From: a virus
Reading direction: 5' to 3' (one strand)
DNA: 64,000 nt
Virus record (IMG/VR): IMGVR_UViG_3300032309_001546
Span: 32,001-96,000 of that record
Position 1 is the first letter of the stretch. Each line of letters opens with the position of its first letter. Position numbers and translations under genes: made by a program. Positions 3,156 through 64,000 of the stretch are shown here, in pieces. The notes beneath the pieces are model-generated. The model was not told the DNA's origin and did not search any database. It saw only the letters and a program-made list of their open reading frames with translations.

Positions 3156-3195
3156 ACTAGCCTCTGTACGAATATAAGAGAATATTTTAATCAAG

Positions 3196-3268
3196 CTCTG
3201 GCTATAGGATTTGAACCTATGACCTAGAAATTAACAGTTTCCCGCTTCTACCACTGAGCTAAGCCAGA
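3196..3268 (-). tRNA. tRNA-Asn(GTT)
   Basis: Cloverleaf TCTGGCT/AGCCAGA acceptor, GGAAA-CTGTTAA-TTTCT anticodon arm, ATAGG-TTCAAAT-CCTAT, discriminator G. Confidence 0.9.
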
Positions 3269-4863: not shown

Positions 4864-7278
4864 TTACTTTATTAAGGTAATTTTTCCGACTGGGCGAATC
4901 CTTAAGAAATCATCTTTCTTAGTTGCTTTGTAGGAGAAAAATAATAGGGAACAATAGTCAAGCTTTTCTTTCAGTTCTTCGTATTGATCTGAGAACAGCG
5001 TGACTTCTGATATAGAAGATAAATCTTCGATTGTCAATGTTGCCATTAATTTTCCTTTTGATTTACCGCTTTTGATTTGCTGTTCTTTAATATGAGATAC
5101 CGCGACGAGCAGATTGCCTTCGTTGCTATTTGTCTCATCAATATCTTCTATCTGATTAATTAAGATTCCGGGTGGAGTCTTAGTAATATAAGATAGTGGA
5201 TGGCGACTAATAAAGAACTTACAATACTCTGATTCCCACTTAACAATTTGCAGTGGGACTTTATAGTCAGACGTTTTCTTGATAGATTCTAGGTCAGGGA
5301 AAGTAGGCTGATCAGGAACTTTAAGAACTAATGGCTTCTTAGGTCTTGGTTCTGAATACACTTTCTTACCATCTGAGTCTATACTTAAACTAATTACGCC
5401 TGCCTTTAATCTTGCAGACCAATCGTCGAGCAAGGCGGGATAAGCATCTACTTCCTTGTTACGCTCAAAGGCTTGAACTATTCTTGTTTGATAGTTTTCA
5501 ACCTTTGTATAGTAATCAAAGATATCAGAAAGCTTATCTACAAGCTTGACTCTGTCGTAGCCAAAGCTATCGAATGCGCCGACCTTTGCAAGTATACTAA
5601 CAACACCAGAATTAATCTTTGTGCGATTGATTCTAGTAAAGAAGTCAGCCATGCTTGTAAAAGACTTGCGACCGCGTGCCTTAAGTATAAGGTCACTAGC
5701 TTTGTTACCGATGCCATTGATCATGCCAAGGCCAAACAAGATAGTATTGTCATCCAACTTAGTAAAACCAATATCACTATTGTTAATACTAGGTGGAAGA
5801 ATGTTGTAACCCATCTGGCGATACTCGTTGATATATCTGACTAGCTTCTCAGGCTTACCACTTCTGACAGTCATTAGCGTAAGCATAAAGTCTGTAGGAT
5901 AGTAAGTCTTAAGATAAGCATTGAAGTAAGTAATGAAGGCATAAGCAAGAGCATGACTCTTATTAAAACCATACTCAGCAAATGCTGCAATGACATTCCA
6001 AATACGAGTTGCCTCTCCCATATCAATCTTATGAAGACGAGCACAGCCATCTACAAAAAGTGTGCGATATTCTGCCATCAATGTAGCATCTTTCTTGCCC
6101 ATTGCTTTTCTAATCTTATCAGCCTCTTGGAGTGTTACTCCTGCAAGTATCTGACAAGCGGCCATAATCTGTTCCTGATAAATAAGAACACCGCCGGTCT
6201 CAGCAAGTACATCATCAAGTAATGGATGTAACTTATTCTGAGTCTGACGAGTCTTCTTATAGTCAATGTAGTCCTGAAGCAGACCTGAGTCACGAGGACC
6301 AGGACGATTAAGAGCTGAGAAAACTGCAAGATCCTGGACACTCTGTGGCTTGAGATCGGCTACAAGTTTTAGTAGATAAGTCTCTTCCATCTGGAATAAG
6401 CCAGCTGTGAATCCTTTATTGATTAATTCAAACACATTGGGATCATCAGTAGGAACTTCTTCCTCTAGCCACTTGAGTGACTTACCAATACGCTTACAAG
6501 TAAGATCGTTAATTGTAAGGCAATCGATTCTAAGAATGTCGAACTTAATAAAGTTCATTTTCTCTAGAGTTGGACCTTCCCATTGGGTAAGATTGAACCA
6601 GTCTGCGCCTTCAGTCTTGCTCTTCCGGATTGGAATCATCTGATCTACTGGACTTGTGCCAATAAGAACTGCACTAGCATGAACGCTAACTTCCTTTGCT
6701 TGTCCATCTACTGGTCCGCAAAGGCTAAAGATATCTTGATTAGCTTCTACAATCTTTTTGATGTGTTCGCTATTGTCTTCGATTAGTTCTTTATAAGTTA
6801 CATACTTGCCACGGTGACTTTCAGGCAAGCTGTCAGCTAACCGTTCCGCATCGGCAATAGTTCTATATGTGCCATCTGCATGCTTAAGTAACTTAGTGAA
6901 AGCTTTAACGCTTGTCTTAAGAGACCAAGGCTTATAGGTAGATACACGAAGAACACGATCATGACCATACTTAGTTTGCAGTGCCTTGATTAGATCATCA
7001 GCACGAACATTACAAAAGTCAGTATCGATATCCGGGCCTTCGCCATCAACATGATAAGTAACACGCTCATCCGGATTATAAGTGTCAGACAAGCCAAGCG
7101 CATATAGTAATGCAGAGTTACTTTTATTAGCAAGTTTTGCTTTAGACTCAAAGGCCTTGTTGATAAAAGCTAGAGTTTCATCGGTAAGATACCTGACCTC
7201 AAAGTCCAAGTAGTCTTTGCTTATTACATTTAATCTATCATCTGAATAGAATTTATTAAGGTTTTTCTTGTTGATCAT
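4864..7278 (-). CDS. dnaE: DNA polymerase III alpha, C-terminal part (palm Asp, fingers, HhH, OB)
   Basis: PDIDTDF, SVHASAV, KFDIL, GLFQME, ALNRPGP, YQEQIM, YGFNKSHA, C-terminal OB fold. Confidence 0.93.
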   Translation of the reverse strand: MINKKNLNKFYSDDRLNVISKDYLDFEVRYLTDETLAFINKAFESKAKLANKSNSALLYALGLSDTYNPDERVTYHVDGEGPDIDTDFCNVRADDLIKALQTKYGHDRVLRVSTYKPWSLKTSVKAFTKLLKHADGTYRTIADAERLADSLPESHRGKYVTYKELIEDNSEHIKKIVEANQDIFSLCGPVDGQAKEVSVHASAVLIGTSPVDQMIPIRKSKTEGADWFNLTQWEGPTLEKMNFIKFDILRIDCLTINDLTCKRIGKSLKWLEEEVPTDDPNVFELINKGFTAGLFQMEETYLLKLVADLKPQSVQDLAVFSALNRPGPRDSGLLQDYIDYKKTRQTQNKLHPLLDDVLAETGGVLIYQEQIMAACQILAGVTLQEADKIRKAMGKKDATLMAEYRTLFVDGCARLHKIDMGEATRIWNVIAAFAEYGFNKSHALAYAFITYFNAYLKTYYPTDFMLTLMTVRSGKPEKLVRYINEYRQMGYNILPPSINNSDIGFTKLDDNTILFGLGMINGIGNKASDLILKARGRKSFTSMADFFTRINRTKINSGVVSILAKVGAFDSFGYDRVKLVDKLSDIFDYYTKVENYQTRIVQAFERNKEVDAYPALLDDWSARLKAGVISLSIDSDGKKVYSEPRPKKPLVLKVPDQPTFPDLESIKKTSDYKVPLQIVKWESEYCKFFISRHPLSYITKTPPGILINQIEDIDETNSNEGNLLVAVSHIKEQQIKSGKSKGKLMATLTIEDLSSISEVTLFSDQYEELKEKLDYCSLLFFSYKATKKDDFLRIRPVGKITLIK

Positions 7279-7576
7279 AATCGTCCAATAAACAATGTTT
7301 AAGAAATACTTGTCTGAAAAGATTTAAAGTTTCCTTTTTCTTCTCAGAGTCACTTGTCCAGTAATGACGAAAAAATAAATACAAAAAAGTAAAGAATGGA
7401 ACTTTATAGATCCAACCTAATTTTTCATGCCAAGTTTGAGTATGGTCTAGCGTAAAACTTTTTACTGGAGAAAAAGTCTCAGTTTCTTTGTTCCAAGTAT
7501 ACTTCTCTTTAAAAACTTTTCTGTAAGATAACTTCTCAGGTGTATATACTATAGACTTTTCATTAGACATTTTCAA
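7256..7576 (-). CDS. hypothetical protein between the two dnaE halves; one hydrophobic segment
   Basis: ORF overlaps stop of dnaE-N and start of dnaE-C; WIYKVPFFTFLYLFF. Confidence 0.6.
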   Translation of the reverse strand: MKMSNEKSIVYTPEKLSYRKVFKEKYTWNKETETFSPVKSFTLDHTQTWHEKLGWIYKVPFFTFLYLFFRHYWTSDSEKKKETLNLFRQVFLKHCLLDDYDQQEKP

Positions 7577-8846
7577 GCTCTTTAATATCTTCTGAGTAGT
7601 CTAAAGTAATTCGGACTCGACCAGGATTGAGAAAGCGCTCGAACAGCAGACCATGTTTAACAGGATCAAGATGCTTAGCTGTGATTCCTAGTGACCATGA
7701 GATCAAAGATCCACCACCAGAACCACGCGCTGGGCCAACAGGTATACCCATATCCTTAGCTAGGCTAACATAGTCTTGAACGACAAGGAAATAGGAACTA
7801 TACCGTGCCTCGTCAATGACTTGGAACTCATATCTAATTCTATCCTTGTAGGCTTTAGGGACATCAGCCCAGCTCTTTACGCCAAGCCGAGATATAAGAC
7901 CAGCCTTAGCCTTCTTAAGAAGCATTAGGCTTGTCCCCTCAGGCGTCATTCCTTCAAGCTGAAGATTCGGTGCCTTAGTTACTCGCTCAAAGTATGAGCC
8001 ATCTACAAGATCTGCTACATGCTGAGTATTAGTGATTGCTTCATGTGGTAACTGCCAGTCATCACAAAGAGTCTTTGCGAACTCTGCATCATACATCCAA
8101 GCATTATGATCTTGAACTTCATATGGCATTGTGTCTGGAGTCTTATGCATGCTCACACACATAACATAGCTACGCAACTTGTACTGATCTTGGTTCTGAT
8201 GATGAGCATCAGCTGTAAGTACAAGAGGAATATTCTTGCGTTTGCTTAGATCAATTAGATATTGATTGTAACCATACTGCTTTTCAACATTATTATGCTG
8301 AAGCTCTAAGAAGAAGCTGTCGTCGCCGACCGCCTCCTTAACTTCATCACACCATCTATCTATCTTTGCATGTTCACCCCAGTGCCAATACTTAAAGCAC
8401 TGACTACTGATACAAGTACTAGTAGCAATTAAGCCTTTAGCGTGTTGCTTAAAAGTATCTAGATCGATACGAGGATAGCGATAAAAGCCATCTTCATATG
8501 AATACTTAGTAAGCTTCATTAAGTTCTTATAACCTTCTTCGTTCTTAGCAAGTAATAGGAAGTGGCCATTGTTAACTGCTTTCTCGGCTACGCCATTCTC
8601 TGGCATAAAATCAGACTTAGTCTTGGCATCGCCAAAAGCAAGATATGTTTCATTACCAATGATAGGCTTTACGTTAGCAGCACGACAGCCCTTTACAAAT
8701 TCTGGGATGCCACCCATATATCCATGATCTGTCAATGCAACTGCATTCATTCCTCTGGCAGCAACAGTCTTACCCATTTCATCGGCTGGCTGTAAGCCAT
8801 CAAGCAATGAGTAGTAGCTATGCGCATGGAGATGTACCATTCCCAT
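7563..8846 (-). CDS. dnaE: DNA polymerase III alpha, N-terminal part (PHP domain and start of palm)
   Basis: HLHAHSYYSLLDG, ALTDHG, LLAKN, TADAH, GPARGSGGGS, LLFERFLNPGR. Confidence 0.93.
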   Translation of the reverse strand: MGMVHLHAHSYYSLLDGLQPADEMGKTVAARGMNAVALTDHGYMGGIPEFVKGCRAANVKPIIGNETYLAFGDAKTKSDFMPENGVAEKAVNNGHFLLLAKNEEGYKNLMKLTKYSYEDGFYRYPRIDLDTFKQHAKGLIATSTCISSQCFKYWHWGEHAKIDRWCDEVKEAVGDDSFFLELQHNNVEKQYGYNQYLIDLSKRKNIPLVLTADAHHQNQDQYKLRSYVMCVSMHKTPDTMPYEVQDHNAWMYDAEFAKTLCDDWQLPHEAITNTQHVADLVDGSYFERVTKAPNLQLEGMTPEGTSLMLLKKAKAGLISRLGVKSWADVPKAYKDRIRYEFQVIDEARYSSYFLVVQDYVSLAKDMGIPVGPARGSGGGSLISWSLGITAKHLDPVKHGLLFERFLNPGRVRITLDYSEDIKELENV

Positions 8847-36993: not shown

Positions 36994-37030
36994 TCTAGTA
37001 GAATCTCCAGTGATAAAGTAAATAAATAAG

Positions 37031-37112
37031 TGGGAGTAGATGGACTCGAACCAACGTAGACCGAAGTCGGGGGATTTACAGTCCCCTGCAATTGCCACTA
37101 TGCGATACTCCC
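37031..37112 (-). tRNA. tRNA-Tyr(GTA)
   Basis: GGGAGTA/TACTCCC acceptor, GGGGA-CTGTAAA-TCCCC, long variable arm. Confidence 0.92.
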
Positions 37113-37264
37113 AATATAAGTGCTCAGGACGGGACTTGAACCCGTAATTCCAAGGAAGGCAGATTTTCTTACCACTATAGTTTTCACTACCAGCATATGC
37201 CGTTTGTGGTCTGGACTATACCTTTACCATAGTATTTCTACATTAGGTAACAACCGTCTAGTCT

Positions 37265-37702
37265 CTACACTTTCCTTAAATGGTTTGCTTTTCTCCAAGA
37301 GTCTGTCATAGAATGACAGTTTGGACAAAGCAACTGCAAGTTTTCTTCTACATTATTTGTCCTATCTCCATCAATGTGATGTATTTCCAATTTTATCTGT
37401 TCAGAAAGCCATTCTGAAAGATTACATTGTTCGCATTGATGAGTACGCTTTTTTATTAAATGAGGTTTTAGATTAGCAGCTTTAGAATAAGAACTCCAGT
37501 CTTTCAACTGTTGATCTTTATTCCAACCCTTGCCAGTAAAGTGAGAGGTGTCACACAATAGTCTTTGGATGTTCCGTTGGACATTTGCGTAATTACCTCC
37601 AGCTTGCTTTAGCCCAAGAACTTTAAGTACTTGGGAAATGCTTTTACTAGCCTTAACAGCATCTATTATTTGCTGATCTGTATAATCTTTATATTTTCTC
37701 AT
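37265..37702 (-). CDS. HNH homing endonuclease (intron-encoded)
   Basis: CEQC...LEIHHIDGDRTNN..NLQLLCPNCH. Confidence 0.9.
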   Translation of the reverse strand: MRKYKDYTDQQIIDAVKASKSISQVLKVLGLKQAGGNYANVQRNIQRLLCDTSHFTGKGWNKDQQLKDWSSYSKAANLKPHLIKKRTHQCEQCNLSEWLSEQIKLEIHHIDGDRTNNVEENLQLLCPNCHSMTDSWRKANHLRKV

Positions 37703-37708
37703 AGTAAT

Positions 37709-37717
37709 ATTATAGCA
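37709..37717 (-). promoter_or_regulatory. extended -10 promoter inside intron
   Basis: TGCTATAAT 6 nt upstream of HNH ATG, no RBS. Confidence 0.6.
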
Positions 37718-37897
37718 TAGGTAATGGAGAATAAACTGTGCGTTTGCCATTTAAGGCTTAGCTCGGTATTAGCATGCTAGTAAACTAGTTTAGCCTTCAC
37801 CGAATTTGATTGTGTTCACCTATAAGGTTTCCCCTATAGGGCTCAAATTTTCTATAAGTCTGCTGCGTATGCCGATTTCGCCACCTGAGCAAAGGCA

Positions 37898-39067
37898 TTA
37901 CGCCACAAGTTCTTTATACTTGTCACGCAATGCAAAATAAGCTAAGTCTTTAGCCTTAGCCTCGACCTCAAGATCGAGATCAAAAGGTGCATAAAGTAAA
38001 TTGTCAGAAATCTCATTTACATAATCATGATGAGATCTGTCATATTCATGATCTCGACCTTTTGAAATATGCAGTAATGGTTTGTATGCTTTAGAGCGCC
38101 ACCAATGAAAATCAAATGAACTTACAGGCTTAATAGACATTTGATAATTAGCATTATTAATTTCTGAAGGATGATCAATTACAAACTGAATATGCTTACT
38201 ATAATTAGTACGAGTTTTCCATGTTTCATGGCATGCTTCAAGCGCTTCAGTTAATGGCTCGCCTTCGTTATTAATTTTCCAATGATGCACATCTAGAGTG
38301 ATGGGCATACCAGGAAAATGTTTAATAAGTTCTTGCCATGTCCAGCAACCCTTGTCCTCGGTCTCAAAAACAATACGCTTAAAAGCATTAGGATAGTGCT
38401 TTAGTACCTGCAAAAGCATGACATTAACATTATTTGCAGTTATAGCTGGATTATCAGCGCCTCTACTAACGTGAATGTTAAGTGGACAAGAGTAATCAGC
38501 TGGGGCACCAATCCAGTCAAGAAACATTGCATGGGCAATAAGTTCTGCTCTAGATGAGTTCTGCACTACAGGTGATCCACCAAGACTAACAAACTCTGGA
38601 GGATGCATAGTCAAGCGACCACCTCCATCCAGATATTTCTGAACAGTCTTTCTTAGTTGAAGCTCAAGGCCATTAAAAGCTCCATCAAATCTACCTTTGA
38701 TCATAGAGTTAAAAACTTTACATGGTCTAATCCAATAATTAAAATTTTTATAGGTAAATTCTAGACTCTGTCCATAACTCCAGAATGGAAATAAATTACT
38801 GCTAATGCGATACAACTTGATATTGTTCTGAATGTTATAGTCTAGAACAGCAATCAATTCCTTAATATTATGAACATAGATATTAAAGAGAACTTTAGCG
38901 CCAATCTCCATATGGTCATAGTGCGCATACCAGTCATCAAGATGACGCCAACTGCCGTCAAATTGAACTGGCTCAAAGTTAAGAGTCTTGATCTTCTTAA
39001 GAGTAATAGTTTTAAAGTTAGTTTTATGTGTTCCTAGGCTATTACAACAGTAACCAAGTGTAATCAT
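37898..39067 (-). CDS. uvsE: UV damage endonuclease
   Basis: LGYCC, LYRISSNLFP, RLTMHP, NIHV, FETED, TLDVHH, LLHIS, HHDY, EAKAKD. Confidence 0.88.
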   Translation of the reverse strand: MITLGYCCNSLGTHKTNFKTITLKKIKTLNFEPVQFDGSWRHLDDWYAHYDHMEIGAKVLFNIYVHNIKELIAVLDYNIQNNIKLYRISSNLFPFWSYGQSLEFTYKNFNYWIRPCKVFNSMIKGRFDGAFNGLELQLRKTVQKYLDGGGRLTMHPPEFVSLGGSPVVQNSSRAELIAHAMFLDWIGAPADYSCPLNIHVSRGADNPAITANNVNVMLLQVLKHYPNAFKRIVFETEDKGCWTWQELIKHFPGMPITLDVHHWKINNEGEPLTEALEACHETWKTRTNYSKHIQFVIDHPSEINNANYQMSIKPVSSFDFHWWRSKAYKPLLHISKGRDHEYDRSHHDYVNEISDNLLYAPFDLDLEVEAKAKDLAYFALRDKYKELVA

Positions 39068-39378
39068 AGTTCCTTACTAGGCCAACTATCTACCATACCA
39101 GTAATTAGAAATTCACGATCTGTTGAGTCCAGTCTAGGAAATGCTTCCTGAATCATCTTTCCCTGATTCCAAGCAGACAGACACAACATAAATTCACTAC
39201 TACTCATCTCAGGATAGAGAACGTAGTAAGCCCTACTAAAGGGATCCTTGCGAATAAGTCTAATCTCATCAGTCTCATGAACAATATAAGCCGTAAGCGG
39301 ACCTCTTGGAGTCGTAAGGGTGTGGTATTCACCATCAAGACTAGGCATCCAAAAAGTATCAGTATGAGGATACAACAT
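39064..39378 (-). CDS. hypothetical protein
   Basis: IQEAFPRL..DREFLITG phage-type motif; AGGAG RBS. Confidence 0.7.
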   Translation of the reverse strand: MLYPHTDTFWMPSLDGEYHTLTTPRGPLTAYIVHETDEIRLIRKDPFSRAYYVLYPEMSSSEFMLCLSAWNQGKMIQEAFPRLDSTDREFLITGMVDSWPSKEL

Positions 39379-39426
39379 AATATATCTCCTTTGTTACAGA
39401 TTAATTTTCAAATAACTAATTATAAG

Positions 39427-39498
39427 TGCTTCAAGTAGGATTCGAACCTACGCAATCTAGTTTACAAAACTAGGGCTCTGCCACTGAGCTATTGAAGC
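39427..39498 (-). tRNA. tRNA-Thr(TGT)
   Basis: GCTTCAA/TTGAAGC, CTAGT-TTTGTAA-ACTAG. Confidence 0.92.
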
Positions 39499-39499
39499 A

Positions 39500-39574
39500 T
39501 GGTCGGGATGACAGGGATCGAACCTGCGACATCTTGCTCCCAAAGCAAGCGCGCTACCACTGCGCTACATCCCG
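39500..39574 (-). tRNA. tRNA-Pro(TGG), CCA encoded
   Basis: CGGGATG/CATCCCG, CTTGC-TTTGGGA-GCAAG. Confidence 0.95.
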
Positions 39575-39604
39575 ATTAACAATAAGATACCGTACGAGTA
39601 CCAG

Positions 39605-39677
39605 TGCGACGGGAGGGGCTCGAACCCTCGACTGACGGATTAAAAGTCCGCTACTCTACCAACTGAGTTACCGTCGC
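39605..39677 (-). tRNA. tRNA-Lys(TTT)
   Basis: GCGACGG/CCGTCGC, GCGGA-CTTTTAA-TCCGT. Confidence 0.95.
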
Positions 39678-39698
39678 AAAATAGCAAACAAAATAAAG

Positions 39699-39779
39699 TG
39701 GACCGGGTGGGGGTCGAACCCACATAGCTTGCGCGTTCCGTTATGAGCGAAATTCCGTAACCAATTCGGAGGCCAGTCC
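39699..39779 (-). tRNA. tRNA with CAT anticodon, probably Ile2; atypical (12-nt variable region, C8)
   Basis: GGACTGG/CCGGTCC, TCCG/CGGA D stem, TTTCG-CTCATAA-CGGAA, GTGGG-TTCGACC-CCCAC; directly downstream of tilS. Confidence 0.8.
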
Positions 39780-57238: not shown

Positions 57239-57283
57239 ATACCTCTCATGTTGTACTCTAGAATATAGAGCGTTTGGGGAAAG

Positions 57284-57358
57284 TGTGCCCGACTGGACTT
57301 GAACCAGTGACCTACGGCTTAGAAGGCCGTTGCAACTATCCAACTGTGCTACGGGCAC
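57284..57358 (-). tRNA. tRNA-Arg(TCT)
   Basis: GTGCCCG/CGGGCAC, ACGGC-CTTCTAA-GCCGT. Confidence 0.92.
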
Positions 57359-61800: not shown

Positions 61801-62190
61801 CTATCTCTCTATCTCGCATTAGGACACTAGCAGGGTCACTACTAGTTACGAGTCTATCAGCCCAAGAGGAGGCTTATCCAAATCGTAATGCGGAATTGGC
61901 AACCGCACCTGTCTACTTACACTAGAACCCGACAGGCCCTTTCTAGTGCTTTGATACCCGACAACTACTGGTGTGGTATCTACTGGAGTCTTGAGCCCAG
62001 TCTACTCTCCTCCTGGGTACGCCTAACTAGGCTCACCATGCTCCCCCGAGGTTGGGAACATGGGTACGGGGCGCGTAACTGCCCCTTCCCAGTTTTTATG
62101 TTAAGCGGACTGGGAACCGCCCCTGTCTGATACATACCAGAAGCCGACAGGCCTCATCTGGTACGAGTAGCGGTAGCTACTATCCGCCAT
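61801..62190 (-). ncRNA. candidate structured ncRNA with duplicated double-pseudoknot module
   Basis: No minus-strand ORF; many hairpins; two modules with covarying stems. Confidence 0.6.
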
Positions 62191-62194
62191 GTGA

Positions 62195-62211
62195 GGCGAG
62201 CGCAGCGAGCC
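62195..62211 (+). repeat. GGC-GA-GC-GCA-GC-GA-GCC hairpin motif
   Basis: Exact copy of 61727..61743. Confidence 0.85.
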
Positions 62212-62364
62212 TAATAGAATCCTATTACCTGGACTCTGTCTGGCCATACTAGTAATGCAACTATTTTTGGCCGACCCTAGTAAAGGGGTTTCCCCCCGAG
62301 TAGGGGGGTTTCGTGGGGGTAAAAAAGTTCCCCTCCCACACTGTAAGTGTGAGAGGGGGGTTCT

Positions 62365-62844
62365 CTAGTCCCAGTCGCCAGCAACAGGGGCGGACTTGCG
62401 GGCGGCAGGCTTGGCGGCGGGCTTGGCAGGCCTCGCGGGAGCCTTGGCAGCGGGCTTGGCGGGTGCCTTGGCGGGCTCCTCGACAACACCGTGACGACGC
62501 ATAAGCGCCTTCTCGGTGGCCAAGAGACGAATCTGGGCCTTGCTGTACACGATGAGCCTGGTGGCGTTGTGCCAGGCCTTGTCATCGCTCTGCCAGGACT
62601 CCGTCTCGAGGCCTGCCCCGTCGATGTGCACGAAATTGTACCCGCTCTCGTCCGCCTTTGCGACGAACCAGTTCACGAGCTCCTGGCCGACCAGACGCAC
62701 CCGCGTCCAGTTGGTGTCCTCCGTCCCGTAGGACGAACTGACCGAGAAGTCCGCGTACTTTCCGCTGGCCCCGATCACGGGCTGCTTGCCCATGTAGCCG
62801 AAGCCCGAGACCTTGAGGGTGAGAAACTTGCGATTCTGTTCCAT
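62365..62844 (-). CDS. SSB-like OB-fold protein with PAK-rich linker and acidic tail
   Basis: GYMGKQP, FSVSSS, TNWTRVRLVG, LETESW; start MEQNRK with GGAG RBS. Confidence 0.7.
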   Translation of the reverse strand: MEQNRKFLTLKVSGFGYMGKQPVIGASGKYADFSVSSSYGTEDTNWTRVRLVGQELVNWFVAKADESGYNFVHIDGAGLETESWQSDDKAWHNATRLIVYSKAQIRLLATEKALMRRHGVVEEPAKAPAKPAAKAPARPAKPAAKPAARKSAPVAGDWD

Positions 62845-62889
62845 TGACGTTCTCCGTGGTAAGTGAGCCAAAGGCGGCTCATCATGAAA

Positions 62890-63088
62890 GGCGAGCGCAG
62901 CGATGCCTGTGCTGCGGCGTTGTTGCTGTTGCCTGCGTAGCGCAGCGGAGCAGGCTGTGTTGCTACCTGCGGAGCGCAGCGAAGCAGGGTAACCACGTAG
63001 CGCAGCGGAGTGGTGTGTCCTGTGGTTCTGATGAGCGTAGCGCAGCGGAGTGAATCAGAGGCGAGGACTCGGCGCAGCCCAGCGGAGT
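62890..63088 (+). repeat. cluster of six GC-GCA-GC capped hairpins
   Basis: Units at 62890, 62931, 62966, 62992, 63028, 63071. Confidence 0.9.
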
Positions 63089-63169
63089 ATCTGGACTTTT
63101 TTACGACTATTTGTACTATTTTTGTATTATAGAAAGAATAGCCCATTGCTGGGCTACTCAATCTAATGG

Positions 63170-63940
63170 CTACTTCTTACCCGTGATACGGTTAAGACGT
63201 GCCGCGACACCGGCCTTCTTCTCCGAGGGAGCAGGGGCGGGCTTCTCTTCAGCCTCAACCTCGGCGTCGAAGTCATTGGGATCGATGAAGATAATCTTCA
63301 GGCCCGACTCTTCAGCGTAATCAACCGCATTCTTTGTACCGCCAGTGCTGCCATCCCAGACAGCAATGACGATATCGGCGCAGTCAATCATCTGCATGTT
63401 ACGGCGCTGCATGCAGAACTTGTCTTCGCCATAGGTCTTCTCGCTGACCTGGACGACTTCGCTGGCAACTTCCAGCATGTTCCAGTAGCGCTGCTTGGCT
63501 TCGCGGGGCCACATAGCCTCCTGCTCTACACAGGGGATCATGACCGTGAACGGGATACCCATCTCGTGCGCAATCTCTGCCGCATCCTGGTCAACGCCAA
63601 GGGCACCGCCAGTGATTAGCCAGAGCTTCTCACCGTGCTTGGCAAGACCACGCTCAAGCTGAGCCGCAATCTGTTCACGTACCCAGATGCGCTTCTCCGC
63701 ATTGGGATTGTATCCGCCGATCTTGTCGGGACGGTGACCAGTGAAGGCCACAAAGAAGTACTCCGTCTCTTCGGCTTCAACTTCCTCAGTTGCAGCCGCG
63801 ATCTTAACCTTGAAGGGATCGACATACAGCATACCGGGCTTGTAGTCTGCATACCCTTCGGGGCGGTTGTTGTGGGTAGACTTCGCGCCCGCAGGAGGAT
63901 TCGGCAGAGTGCTGACATCCCGCTTCTGGATGTAAAGCAT
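63170..63940 (-). CDS. SLOG-superfamily protein (YspA/DUF1273-like)
   Basis: AFTGHRP, TGGALGVDQ, RRNMQMID, AVWDGSTGGT. Confidence 0.85.
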   Translation of the reverse strand: MLYIQKRDVSTLPNPPAGAKSTHNNRPEGYADYKPGMLYVDPFKVKIAAATEEVEAEETEYFFVAFTGHRPDKIGGYNPNAEKRIWVREQIAAQLERGLAKHGEKLWLITGGALGVDQDAAEIAHEMGIPFTVMIPCVEQEAMWPREAKQRYWNMLEVASEVVQVSEKTYGEDKFCMQRRNMQMIDCADIVIAVWDGSTGGTKNAVDYAEESGLKIIFIDPNDFDAEVEAEEKPAPAPSEKKAGVAARLNRITGKK

Positions 63941-64000
63941 TACTCCATCAAGTCGGGCTTCGTCATACCAGGCTTGAGGGCCCTTCTGGCGGATCTGCCA

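Follow-up and report, generated by a model that had tools for sequence, protein, structure and literature searches.

A probable two-piece DnaE polymerase of a freshwater phage, divided within the palm and lacking a recognisable intein or intron

In cyanobacteria, DnaE is encoded by two genes at separate loci, and its parts are joined by split-intein trans-splicing at a site in the fingers, between ...AEY and CFNKSH. Another divided enzyme gene, the NrdA-a/mobE/NrdA-b arrangement of Aeromonas phage Aeh1, was reportedly described as "genes in pieces" by Friedrich et al. in 2007. The fragmented Aeh1 NrdA requires the junction tails that the insertion made (Crona et al. 2011, PMC3045599). For the split B-family polymerase of Aeromonas phages 25 and 44RR (Petrov et al. 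2010, summarised in PMC2988022), the fragments gp43A and gp43B are reported to co-purify and to be active, and the slot between them holds a seg endonuclease in one phage and a non-coding spacer in another. Dassa et al. (2009, PMC2677866) described "fractured genes", three DnaE loci among them, in which split inteins occur together with homing endonucleases that stand free. Furthermore, a minimal Pol III alpha module divided, with no intein, into a nucleoside triphosphate (NTP)-binding and an Mg/template-binding protein was predicted in jumbo phages of group 2.2 (Iyer et al. 2021, PMC7824862). Here, we analyzed a dnaE locus in a 64,000-nt stretch of DNA from a freshwater phage (positions 32,001 to 96,000 of IMG/VR virus record IMGVR_UViG_3300032309_001546; hereafter, the window), in which DnaE is cut inside its catalytic palm into an N-half and a C-half.

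The list of open reading frames (ORFs) and their translations showed that the DnaE locus consists of three closely overlapping minus-strand ORFs, each in a different frame, namely the N-half, a middle ORF, and the C-half. The Pfam domains PHP, palm (PF07733), fingers (PF17657), and HhH (PF14579) were found in DnaE order across the two outer ORFs. As observed, PF07733 was split cleanly at profile position 100/101, and its second part started at residue 81 of the C-half. The N-half terminated with LLFERFLNPGRV followed by RITLDYSEDIKELENV and the stop codon, that is, with FLNPGRV and then a 16-aa tail, and the break divides the palm precisely where its NTP-binding part (RGS) gives way to its Mg-binding part (PDIDxD). 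A preliminary description, made from the sequence alone, had assigned RGS to the N-half and all three catalytic Asp residues to the C-half, with PDIDTDF about 80 residues into the latter. Pfam and the alignments agreed on this division, and the translation places the motif at C-half residues 82–88; the third catalytic Asp lies in IKFDIL (at about 6538-6540), also on the C-half. R374, G375, and S376 of the N-half and D83, D85, and D247 of the C-half were invariant in alignments of 60 and 70 sequences, and the nine PHP metal ligands of the N-half likewise formed invariant columns (60-70 homologues). Foldseek and VIA matched the C-half model to the Taq, E. coli, and Mycobacterium tuberculosis (Mtb) Pol III alpha structures. 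The ~570 nt between the motifs had been called a gap; this has to be corrected, as the interval is wholly coding and is made up of the 48-nt tail of the N-half, the 104-aa middle ORF, and an 80-aa head of the C-half.

Seven viral contigs from different metagenomes, whose N-halves were 96-98% identical, showed the same three-ORF layout with an identical junction length of 629 nt. Through protein searches of public metagenomes, the middle ORF was found in 14 further clusters and head-bearing C-halves (804-825 aa) in 7. In addition, lake-water metagenome contigs from other studies bridged both ORF junctions without joints or indels. Because relatives share the architecture and independent contigs bridge the junctions, the split is not an assembly artefact, so that the doubt raised on this point could be dismissed, and the survey of related phages found the same breakpoint in the seven close contigs. 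Loose-end contigs at 7614 and 7655 were also considered and rejected; they represented contiguous dnaE of other organisms (SMPDFDIDF), not a joined form of the phage gene. The wider family was analyzed by searching 1.84 billion representatives exhaustively with the N-half as the phmmer query. Among the best 150 matches, about 96% were uncut at the palm site, and most were contiguous DnaEs of about 1,100-1,200 aa with the canonical FLNPER-xx-PDIDxDF; five further clusters among these 150 were N-halves ending just past FLNPxR.

Next, selection on the two halves was estimated. Nei-Gojobori counts over 300-codon cores of both halves gave ratios of non-synonymous (pN) to synonymous (pS) divergence of 0.01-0.04, with synonymous sites near saturation. 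The layout was kept across clades at 38-98% identity. Neither PolA, PolB, nor an intein was found in the 146-kb record, and the two DnaE halves are the sole recognisable polymerase of the phage. Since both halves are under strong purifying selection and no other polymerase was seen, the proposal that the halves assemble in trans gains support as a reading of the locus. The same data bear on the possibility that the locus is a decaying pseudogene and that the phage uses a host polymerase or an unseen one of its own. The record is only about 84% complete, which would leave room for such a gene; however, the low pN/pS of both halves, the intact catalytic residues, and the conserved layout effectively refute a pseudogene, which is the least probable of the explanations considered here.

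We therefore regard as likely a two-piece polymerase that assembles non-covalently and was left by fracture through a mobile element together with partial duplication. A replicative C-family polymerase would be produced as two separate chains, which together form one active site and are not covalently linked. The PHP domain and the NTP-binding palm segment with RGS would come from the N-half, and the C-half would add the Mg-binding aspartates together with the thumb, the fingers, and the domains that bind DNA. The break lies at a site that mobile elements have struck repeatedly in phage DnaE genes. In the lineage of the window, the junction carries two lineage-specific, protein-coding appendages, a short conserved C-terminal tail on the N-half and an 80-aa helical head on the C-half, and these would stabilise the folding or docking of the halves, by analogy with the junction tails of Aeh1 NrdA-a/b. 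The arrangement would have originated by partial duplication and/or endonuclease invasion. The features of the locus are listed in Table 1.

Table 1. Position and content of the DnaE-locus features in the window
Feature	Position	Strand	Content or basis
DnaE N-half, 427 aa	7563..8846	-	PHP domain with nine metal ligands and PF07733 positions 4-100, carrying RGS and FERFLNPGR
RGS NTP-binding motif, N-half residues 374-376	7719..7727	-	Alignment and translation
N-tail RITLDYSEDIKELENV	7566..7613	-	Motif x-[IVA]-[ST]-L-D-[YF]-S-x-D in split relatives at 41-57% identity
Middle ORF, 104 aa	7256..7570	-	Coupled in translation to the N-half and the C-half; residues from about 50 to 71 form a hydrophobic helix
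DnaE C-half, 804 aa	4864..7278	-	Head, palm C-part (PF07733 101-259), fingers, HhH, OB-like C-terminus
C-head, C-half residues 1-80	7039..7278	-	Five-helix predicted domain; probably a decayed palm N-segment copy without RGS
PDIDTDF catalytic strand with the first two catalytic Asp, C-half residues 82-88	7015..7035	-	Alignment and translation

The tail and head were then compared among the split relatives. Homologous tails and heads were retained at 38-57% identity; N-halves at 57% and 41% identity carried the tails RVQVSLDYSSD... and RVTATLDFSAD..., respectively. The C-halves of L019, L020, P0173, and P0174 shared the head motif ...FE..[YF]LT.E.L......N.SNS.[LI][LI]Y.LGLS[DE].Y....Y.V.G.GPDID, and N51, N54, and S55 were invariant throughout the head family. 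The pN/pS of the tail and head was 0.03-0.06 at near-saturated synonymous sites, that of the tail being about 0.06, and among close relatives the two showed pN of 0.03-0.11 vs pS of 0.4-0.7. Because the change is mostly synonymous and replacements are conservative at about 40% identity, the constraint on the tail and head acts at the protein level and not at the RNA level. Thus, the tail and head, like the middle ORF, are under protein-level selection.

The AlphaFold2 (AF2) model of the head consisted of five helices with a predicted local distance difference test (pLDDT) score of 92-97, with only about ten sequences covering the head. When the head was compared with the palm N-segment by hhalign, a colinear match of 59-65 columns was obtained (P=7e-5; score 28.9 vs <=14.9 in 30 column shuffles). 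The aligned pairs of palm N-segment and head were RLxYELxVI/DYLDFExRY, DFIxxAK/LxFxNxA, and GSLVAYxLGIT/NSALLYxLGLS. Against the family of the whole 427-residue N-half, the head profile gave its single best match on residues 315-396 (P = 7e-4). The hhalign match implies that the YFLIV strand and the GPGRGS loop are gone from the head. Moreover, in some VIA alignments the match with Pol III alpha of Taq (2hpi) and of E. coli (5fkv_A) ran over the head onto the residues before the catalytic Asp, and Foldseek alignments covered about 280-350 columns of the 300-residue C-half model. These comparisons lead us to favour, as rather probable though not proven, that the head is a diverged duplicate of the palm N-segment. 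As for the tail, it is conjectured that LD[YF]SxD is a decayed PDIDxD strand; the tail is too short for statistics.

Several points weigh against the two-piece assembly and the duplicated head. That the halves bind each other and act jointly, we infer only from the selection on them and from their being the sole polymerase. The head gave no match to its own N-half by Smith-Waterman or BLASTP, a hidden Markov model (HMM) of canonical palm segments scored the heads no better than shuffles, and the head HMM returned no DnaE from the PDB sequences; the apparent homology of head and palm comes solely from profile-profile comparison. In the AF2 model of the isolated C-half, its own head may occupy the place of the N-half segment, which makes ambiguous the copy that serves the active site. 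Finally, the N-half, middle ORF, and C-half each lie at +1 relative to the preceding frame, with overlaps of 8 and 23 nt.

This last point would suit programmed ribosomal frameshifting, two +1 shifts in the window and one -1/+2 shift in L019, yielding a single fused DnaE with an internal insertion, and so would the constant length of the junction in the clade. However, the overlap showed no recognisable slippery site as judged by eye, and every ORF has its own ATG with a purine-rich stretch upstream. The slot between the halves holds anything from nothing to a 270-aa LAGLIDADG ORF, and no fused protein with a C-head was present among 5.8 billion proteins within the range of 442-1407 aa. We therefore judge frameshifting very unlikely.

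In another explanation, the C-half would be a self-sufficient polymerase core, the head, with the conserved N-x-S-N-S in place of GRGSAAGS, would serve as the palm N-subdomain in cis, and the N-half would be a subunit of its own, with a PHP proofreading or a structural role, and would use its palm segment only for docking. The very high confidence of the head prediction, its colinearity with the palm N-segment, the invariance of N51, N54, and S55, and the conservation of all nine PHP metal ligands in the N-half are consistent with it. Nevertheless, the palm segment of the N-half remained near canonical (GPARGSGGGS...FERFLNPGR) down to 41% identity with pN/pS of about 0.03, the RGS loop and one strand are gone from the head, and the non-synonymous rate of the head is about 10 times faster. 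A core acting in cis thus appears improbable.

The preferred two-piece assembly could also be extended. An overlapping partial duplication may have made the fracture viable, such that each half received a copy of a "palm N-segment plus catalytic strand" unit and the halves lock by a reciprocal pseudo-symmetric swap. The N-half would hold the intact RGS segment and a decayed strand (the LD[YF]SxD tail), and the C-half would hold a decayed segment (the head) and the intact PDIDxD strand. A cassette of tail, slot, and head may then spread between DnaE genes with slot endonucleases. We consider this extension unlikely; if true, the spread of the cassette would give selfish endonucleases a third way of residing inside an active site, one that, unlike inteins and introns, needs no splicing.

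We then searched for an intein or an intron at the junction. As the preliminary description had stated, no intein signature was present: Pfam gave no Hint or intein match in the N-half, middle ORF, or C-half, and PF14890, searched in all six frames over the entire record, was likewise not found. In the positive control L013, which is split at the same site, Hint was detected at 8e-9, and both L013 and L016 scored for Hint and Intein_splicing. Hint blocks A/B were absent at the end of the N-part, where the 16-aa tail begins with Arg and has no Cys, Ser, or Ala at position 1. Blocks F/G were likewise absent; the head ends with TYHVDGEG before PDID, with no HN plus nucleophile, and its His varies in relatives (TYHV/TYNV/TYKV). 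When the head profile was compared with the intein pieces of L013 and L020, no match was obtained.

Atypical split inteins can have very short N-parts. The tail and head might accordingly be an atypical or degenerate split intein, either still trans-splicing or persisting as a dead Hint dimerisation module, and the genuine split intein with endonuclease at exactly this site in L013/L016, from distant phages, would fit such an origin. However, the key intein residues are missing at both ends, the head is all-helical in AF2 and not the beta-rich Hint fold, and the profile and Pfam searches described above were negative. Of all explanations other than a pseudogene, a degenerate intein is the least probable.

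No group I core had been recognised at the junction in the preliminary description, and the Rfam searches agreed: no intron was returned, either for the window junction (E<=10) or for L007, L018, L019, and L020 (E<=1). A group I or II intron, with or without an ORF, extending from tail to head and spliced to restore FLNPGRV-xx-PDIDTDF would suit the site, a classic conserved active-site target. The LAGLIDADG ORF of L020 at this site is of a type that is often intron-encoded, and with about 285 nt, the tail and head of L019 together are as long as a small intron. Nevertheless, the entire stretch is an ORF in every relative, and the substitutions in the tail and head are specific to codon position. 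The RNA-library contig X20, which spans 6929-7156, ran uninterrupted from the head to PDID; this is weak evidence against an intron, as DNA carry-over is possible, and it proves neither transcription nor a lack of splicing. An intron is thus highly improbable, less so than a degenerate intein and more so than frameshifting.

The middle ORF was analyzed in the same manner. Its ATG overlaps the stop codon of the N-half (ATGTCTAA), and its final 23 nt overlap the C-half start. In frame, the pN/pS was about 0.2, compared with about 1 in both alternative frames, and third codon positions held most of the differences, indicating that the middle ORF is a real gene. It evolves much faster than the genes on either side, yet under purifying selection; 18 columns were invariant between two subclades sharing only about 34% identity. 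Pfam, PHROG, NCBIfam, and PADLOC gave no significant match and no homing-endonuclease signature, weak matches to hydrophobic or membrane helices were obtained among PDB sequences and NCBIfam (E 0.03-0.1), and an Atlas feature search had a top score of 0.85. No similarity to the LAGLIDADG ORFs of L020 was found. The AF2 model was weak (pLDDT 56.6) except for a helical hairpin at about residues 45-98 with a very hydrophobic helix. A complex prediction of the N-half and C-half residues 1-300 with the 104-aa ORF as the partner scored 0.01, which counts neither way.

The content of this slot differed among relatives. In L019 it is empty, and the C-half start overlaps the N-half stop (TAATG), leaving zero non-coding space. 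The P0173 contig has a 146-aa ORF, small ORFs across relatives range over 96–146 aa, L020 has a 270-aa LAGLIDADG-like ORF, and in the L018, L023, and P0043/P0064 contigs the slot is taken by different ORFs again, some of them encoded on the opposite strand. Because the content varies and is empty in L019, the middle ORF is dispensable for the split. Our reading is that the slot is a place where mobile or accessory genes land and that the 104-aa protein is a passenger there, which probably does not belong to the polymerase. Nucleotide identity to L007 was 40-56% in the junction island 7018-7601 and 85-93% in its flanks. In addition, the synonymous divergence of the head and middle ORF in the same phage pairs (pS about 0.5-0.7) was greater than that of the flanking DnaE cores (0.3-0.5). 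This excess of pS suggests that the junction island may have been swapped between lineages by recombination.

Trees of both halves grouped the window clade with P0018, P0020/L019, P0173, and P0174 as sister to the contiguous P0019, and placed L020 and the P0043/P0064 pair elsewhere, among contiguous forms. Based on this placement of split and contiguous forms, the split appears to be old in the window clade and would have either arisen several times or moved between lineages. In L013:1241-7307 (149-kb contig) and L016:4323-10389 (389-kb contig), a DnaQ-like exonuclease is fused to the DnaE N-part, and a canonical split intein is located at the same palm site with an intervening 364-aa Vsr-like/DUF7487 homing-endonuclease ORF. 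In L020:3518-9249, a 9-kb metagenome contig, DnaE is fractured twice, with a LAGLIDADG-like ORF at each break. The break at the window's site has a homologous head and no intein, and the second, at the cyanobacterial DnaE site, has a genuine split intein (ADYSFN before LCLSS... and ...GIVSKN before SHA). The PDID codons of L020 carry a frameshift in a low-coverage assembly (cov 4). In the 116-kb relative L019 (L019:6293-8608), the DnaE C-part is in three overlapping ORFs of 418, 197, and 185 aa, through extra fissions or frameshift errors. The P0043/P0064 contigs (L021/L022:4001-5326) represent a second, unrelated N-half group that ends at the same site; its tail, GRAA[LT]P[KL]IF..., differs, and opposite-strand ORFs come next. 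In the P0043 contig, an intein-containing gene lies directly upstream.

The minus strand encodes nearly all genes of the record; the three ORFs of the DnaE locus are bracketed there by a PhoH-like and a metallophosphoesterase gene. Seven tRNA genes (Asn, Tyr, Thr, Pro, Lys, Met, Arg) are dispersed at 3195-3268, 37030-39779, and 57283-57358 on the strand of the protein genes. The G+C content climbs from about 38-40% to 58% at the window end (62000-64000), and this segment may be foreign or host-derived. By blastn and tblastn, neither the locus nor the middle ORF had a match among 50,697 deposited phages; the DnaE homologues in these phages were all distant (<=36% identity), and those inspected were contiguous.

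Among the described systems, Aeh1 NrdA-a/b is, by analogy, the best mechanistic precedent. In both, the gene of an essential enzyme is cut in a critical region by insertion with no RNA or protein splicing, the fragments bear unique junction tails, and the halves are adjacent and co-expressed. As in other genes in pieces, T4 39-60 and gp43A-B included, contiguous relatives exist (the sister P0019 is the nearest), the break lies in a conserved functional region, and both fragments have tails; the break contains no endonuclease gene in the window, a LAGLIDADG ORF in L020, nothing in L019, and other ORFs elsewhere. Unlike Aeh1, the enzyme is a C-family polymerase, the intervening ORF of the window clade has no endonuclease signature, and the system is known from sequence alone. 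Furthermore, the N-terminal appendage is an 80-aa folded domain that seemingly came from a duplicated piece of the host gene and not from the mobile element. With gp43A/gp43B, the locus shares a phage replicative polymerase in two polypeptides, and the slot series of LAGLIDADG, small ORF, and nothing is parallel. However, the polymerase family and fold are different, and the break here is inside the palm, between the NTP-binding and metal-binding motifs. A natural C-family replicative polymerase whose catalytic palm is shared by two polypeptides without splicing would be relevant to specialists in phage replication, inteins, and homing endonucleases, and its split point could be used for engineering two-piece DnaE polymerases.

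The order of N-part, intervening ORF, and C-part in environmental phage-like DNA is that of the fractured loci of Dassa et al., whose arrangement recurs in L013/L016 at the window's site and in L020 at the second DnaE site. In contrast, all of their loci have Hint motifs with catalytic residues and the window locus has none, and therefore rejoining by protein splicing is unavailable to it. As in cyanobacterial DnaE, two genes are present; there, the site is different, the loci are separate, and the halves are covalently rejoined. The jumbo-phage module is also an intein-less division of the Pol-beta fold at topologically the same breakpoint, but it is minimal (no PHP or other DnaE domains) and encoded by distant genes beside a family B replicase, whereas the window has a full-length DnaE as the only polymerase seen, in adjacent coupled genes, with an apparently duplicated head. 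What is new compared with these systems is thus a full-length, apparently sole replicative DnaE fractured in the palm, with an 80-aa head seemingly from a duplicated piece of the polymerase. The second novelty is the graded series of occupants at one site, namely a split intein with a homing-endonuclease gene, such a gene alone, small ORFs, and nothing. This series could reveal how essential genes outlast invasion by selfish endonucleases and how intein-free docking modules originate; in the present case, the source appears to be a duplicated part of the polymerase.

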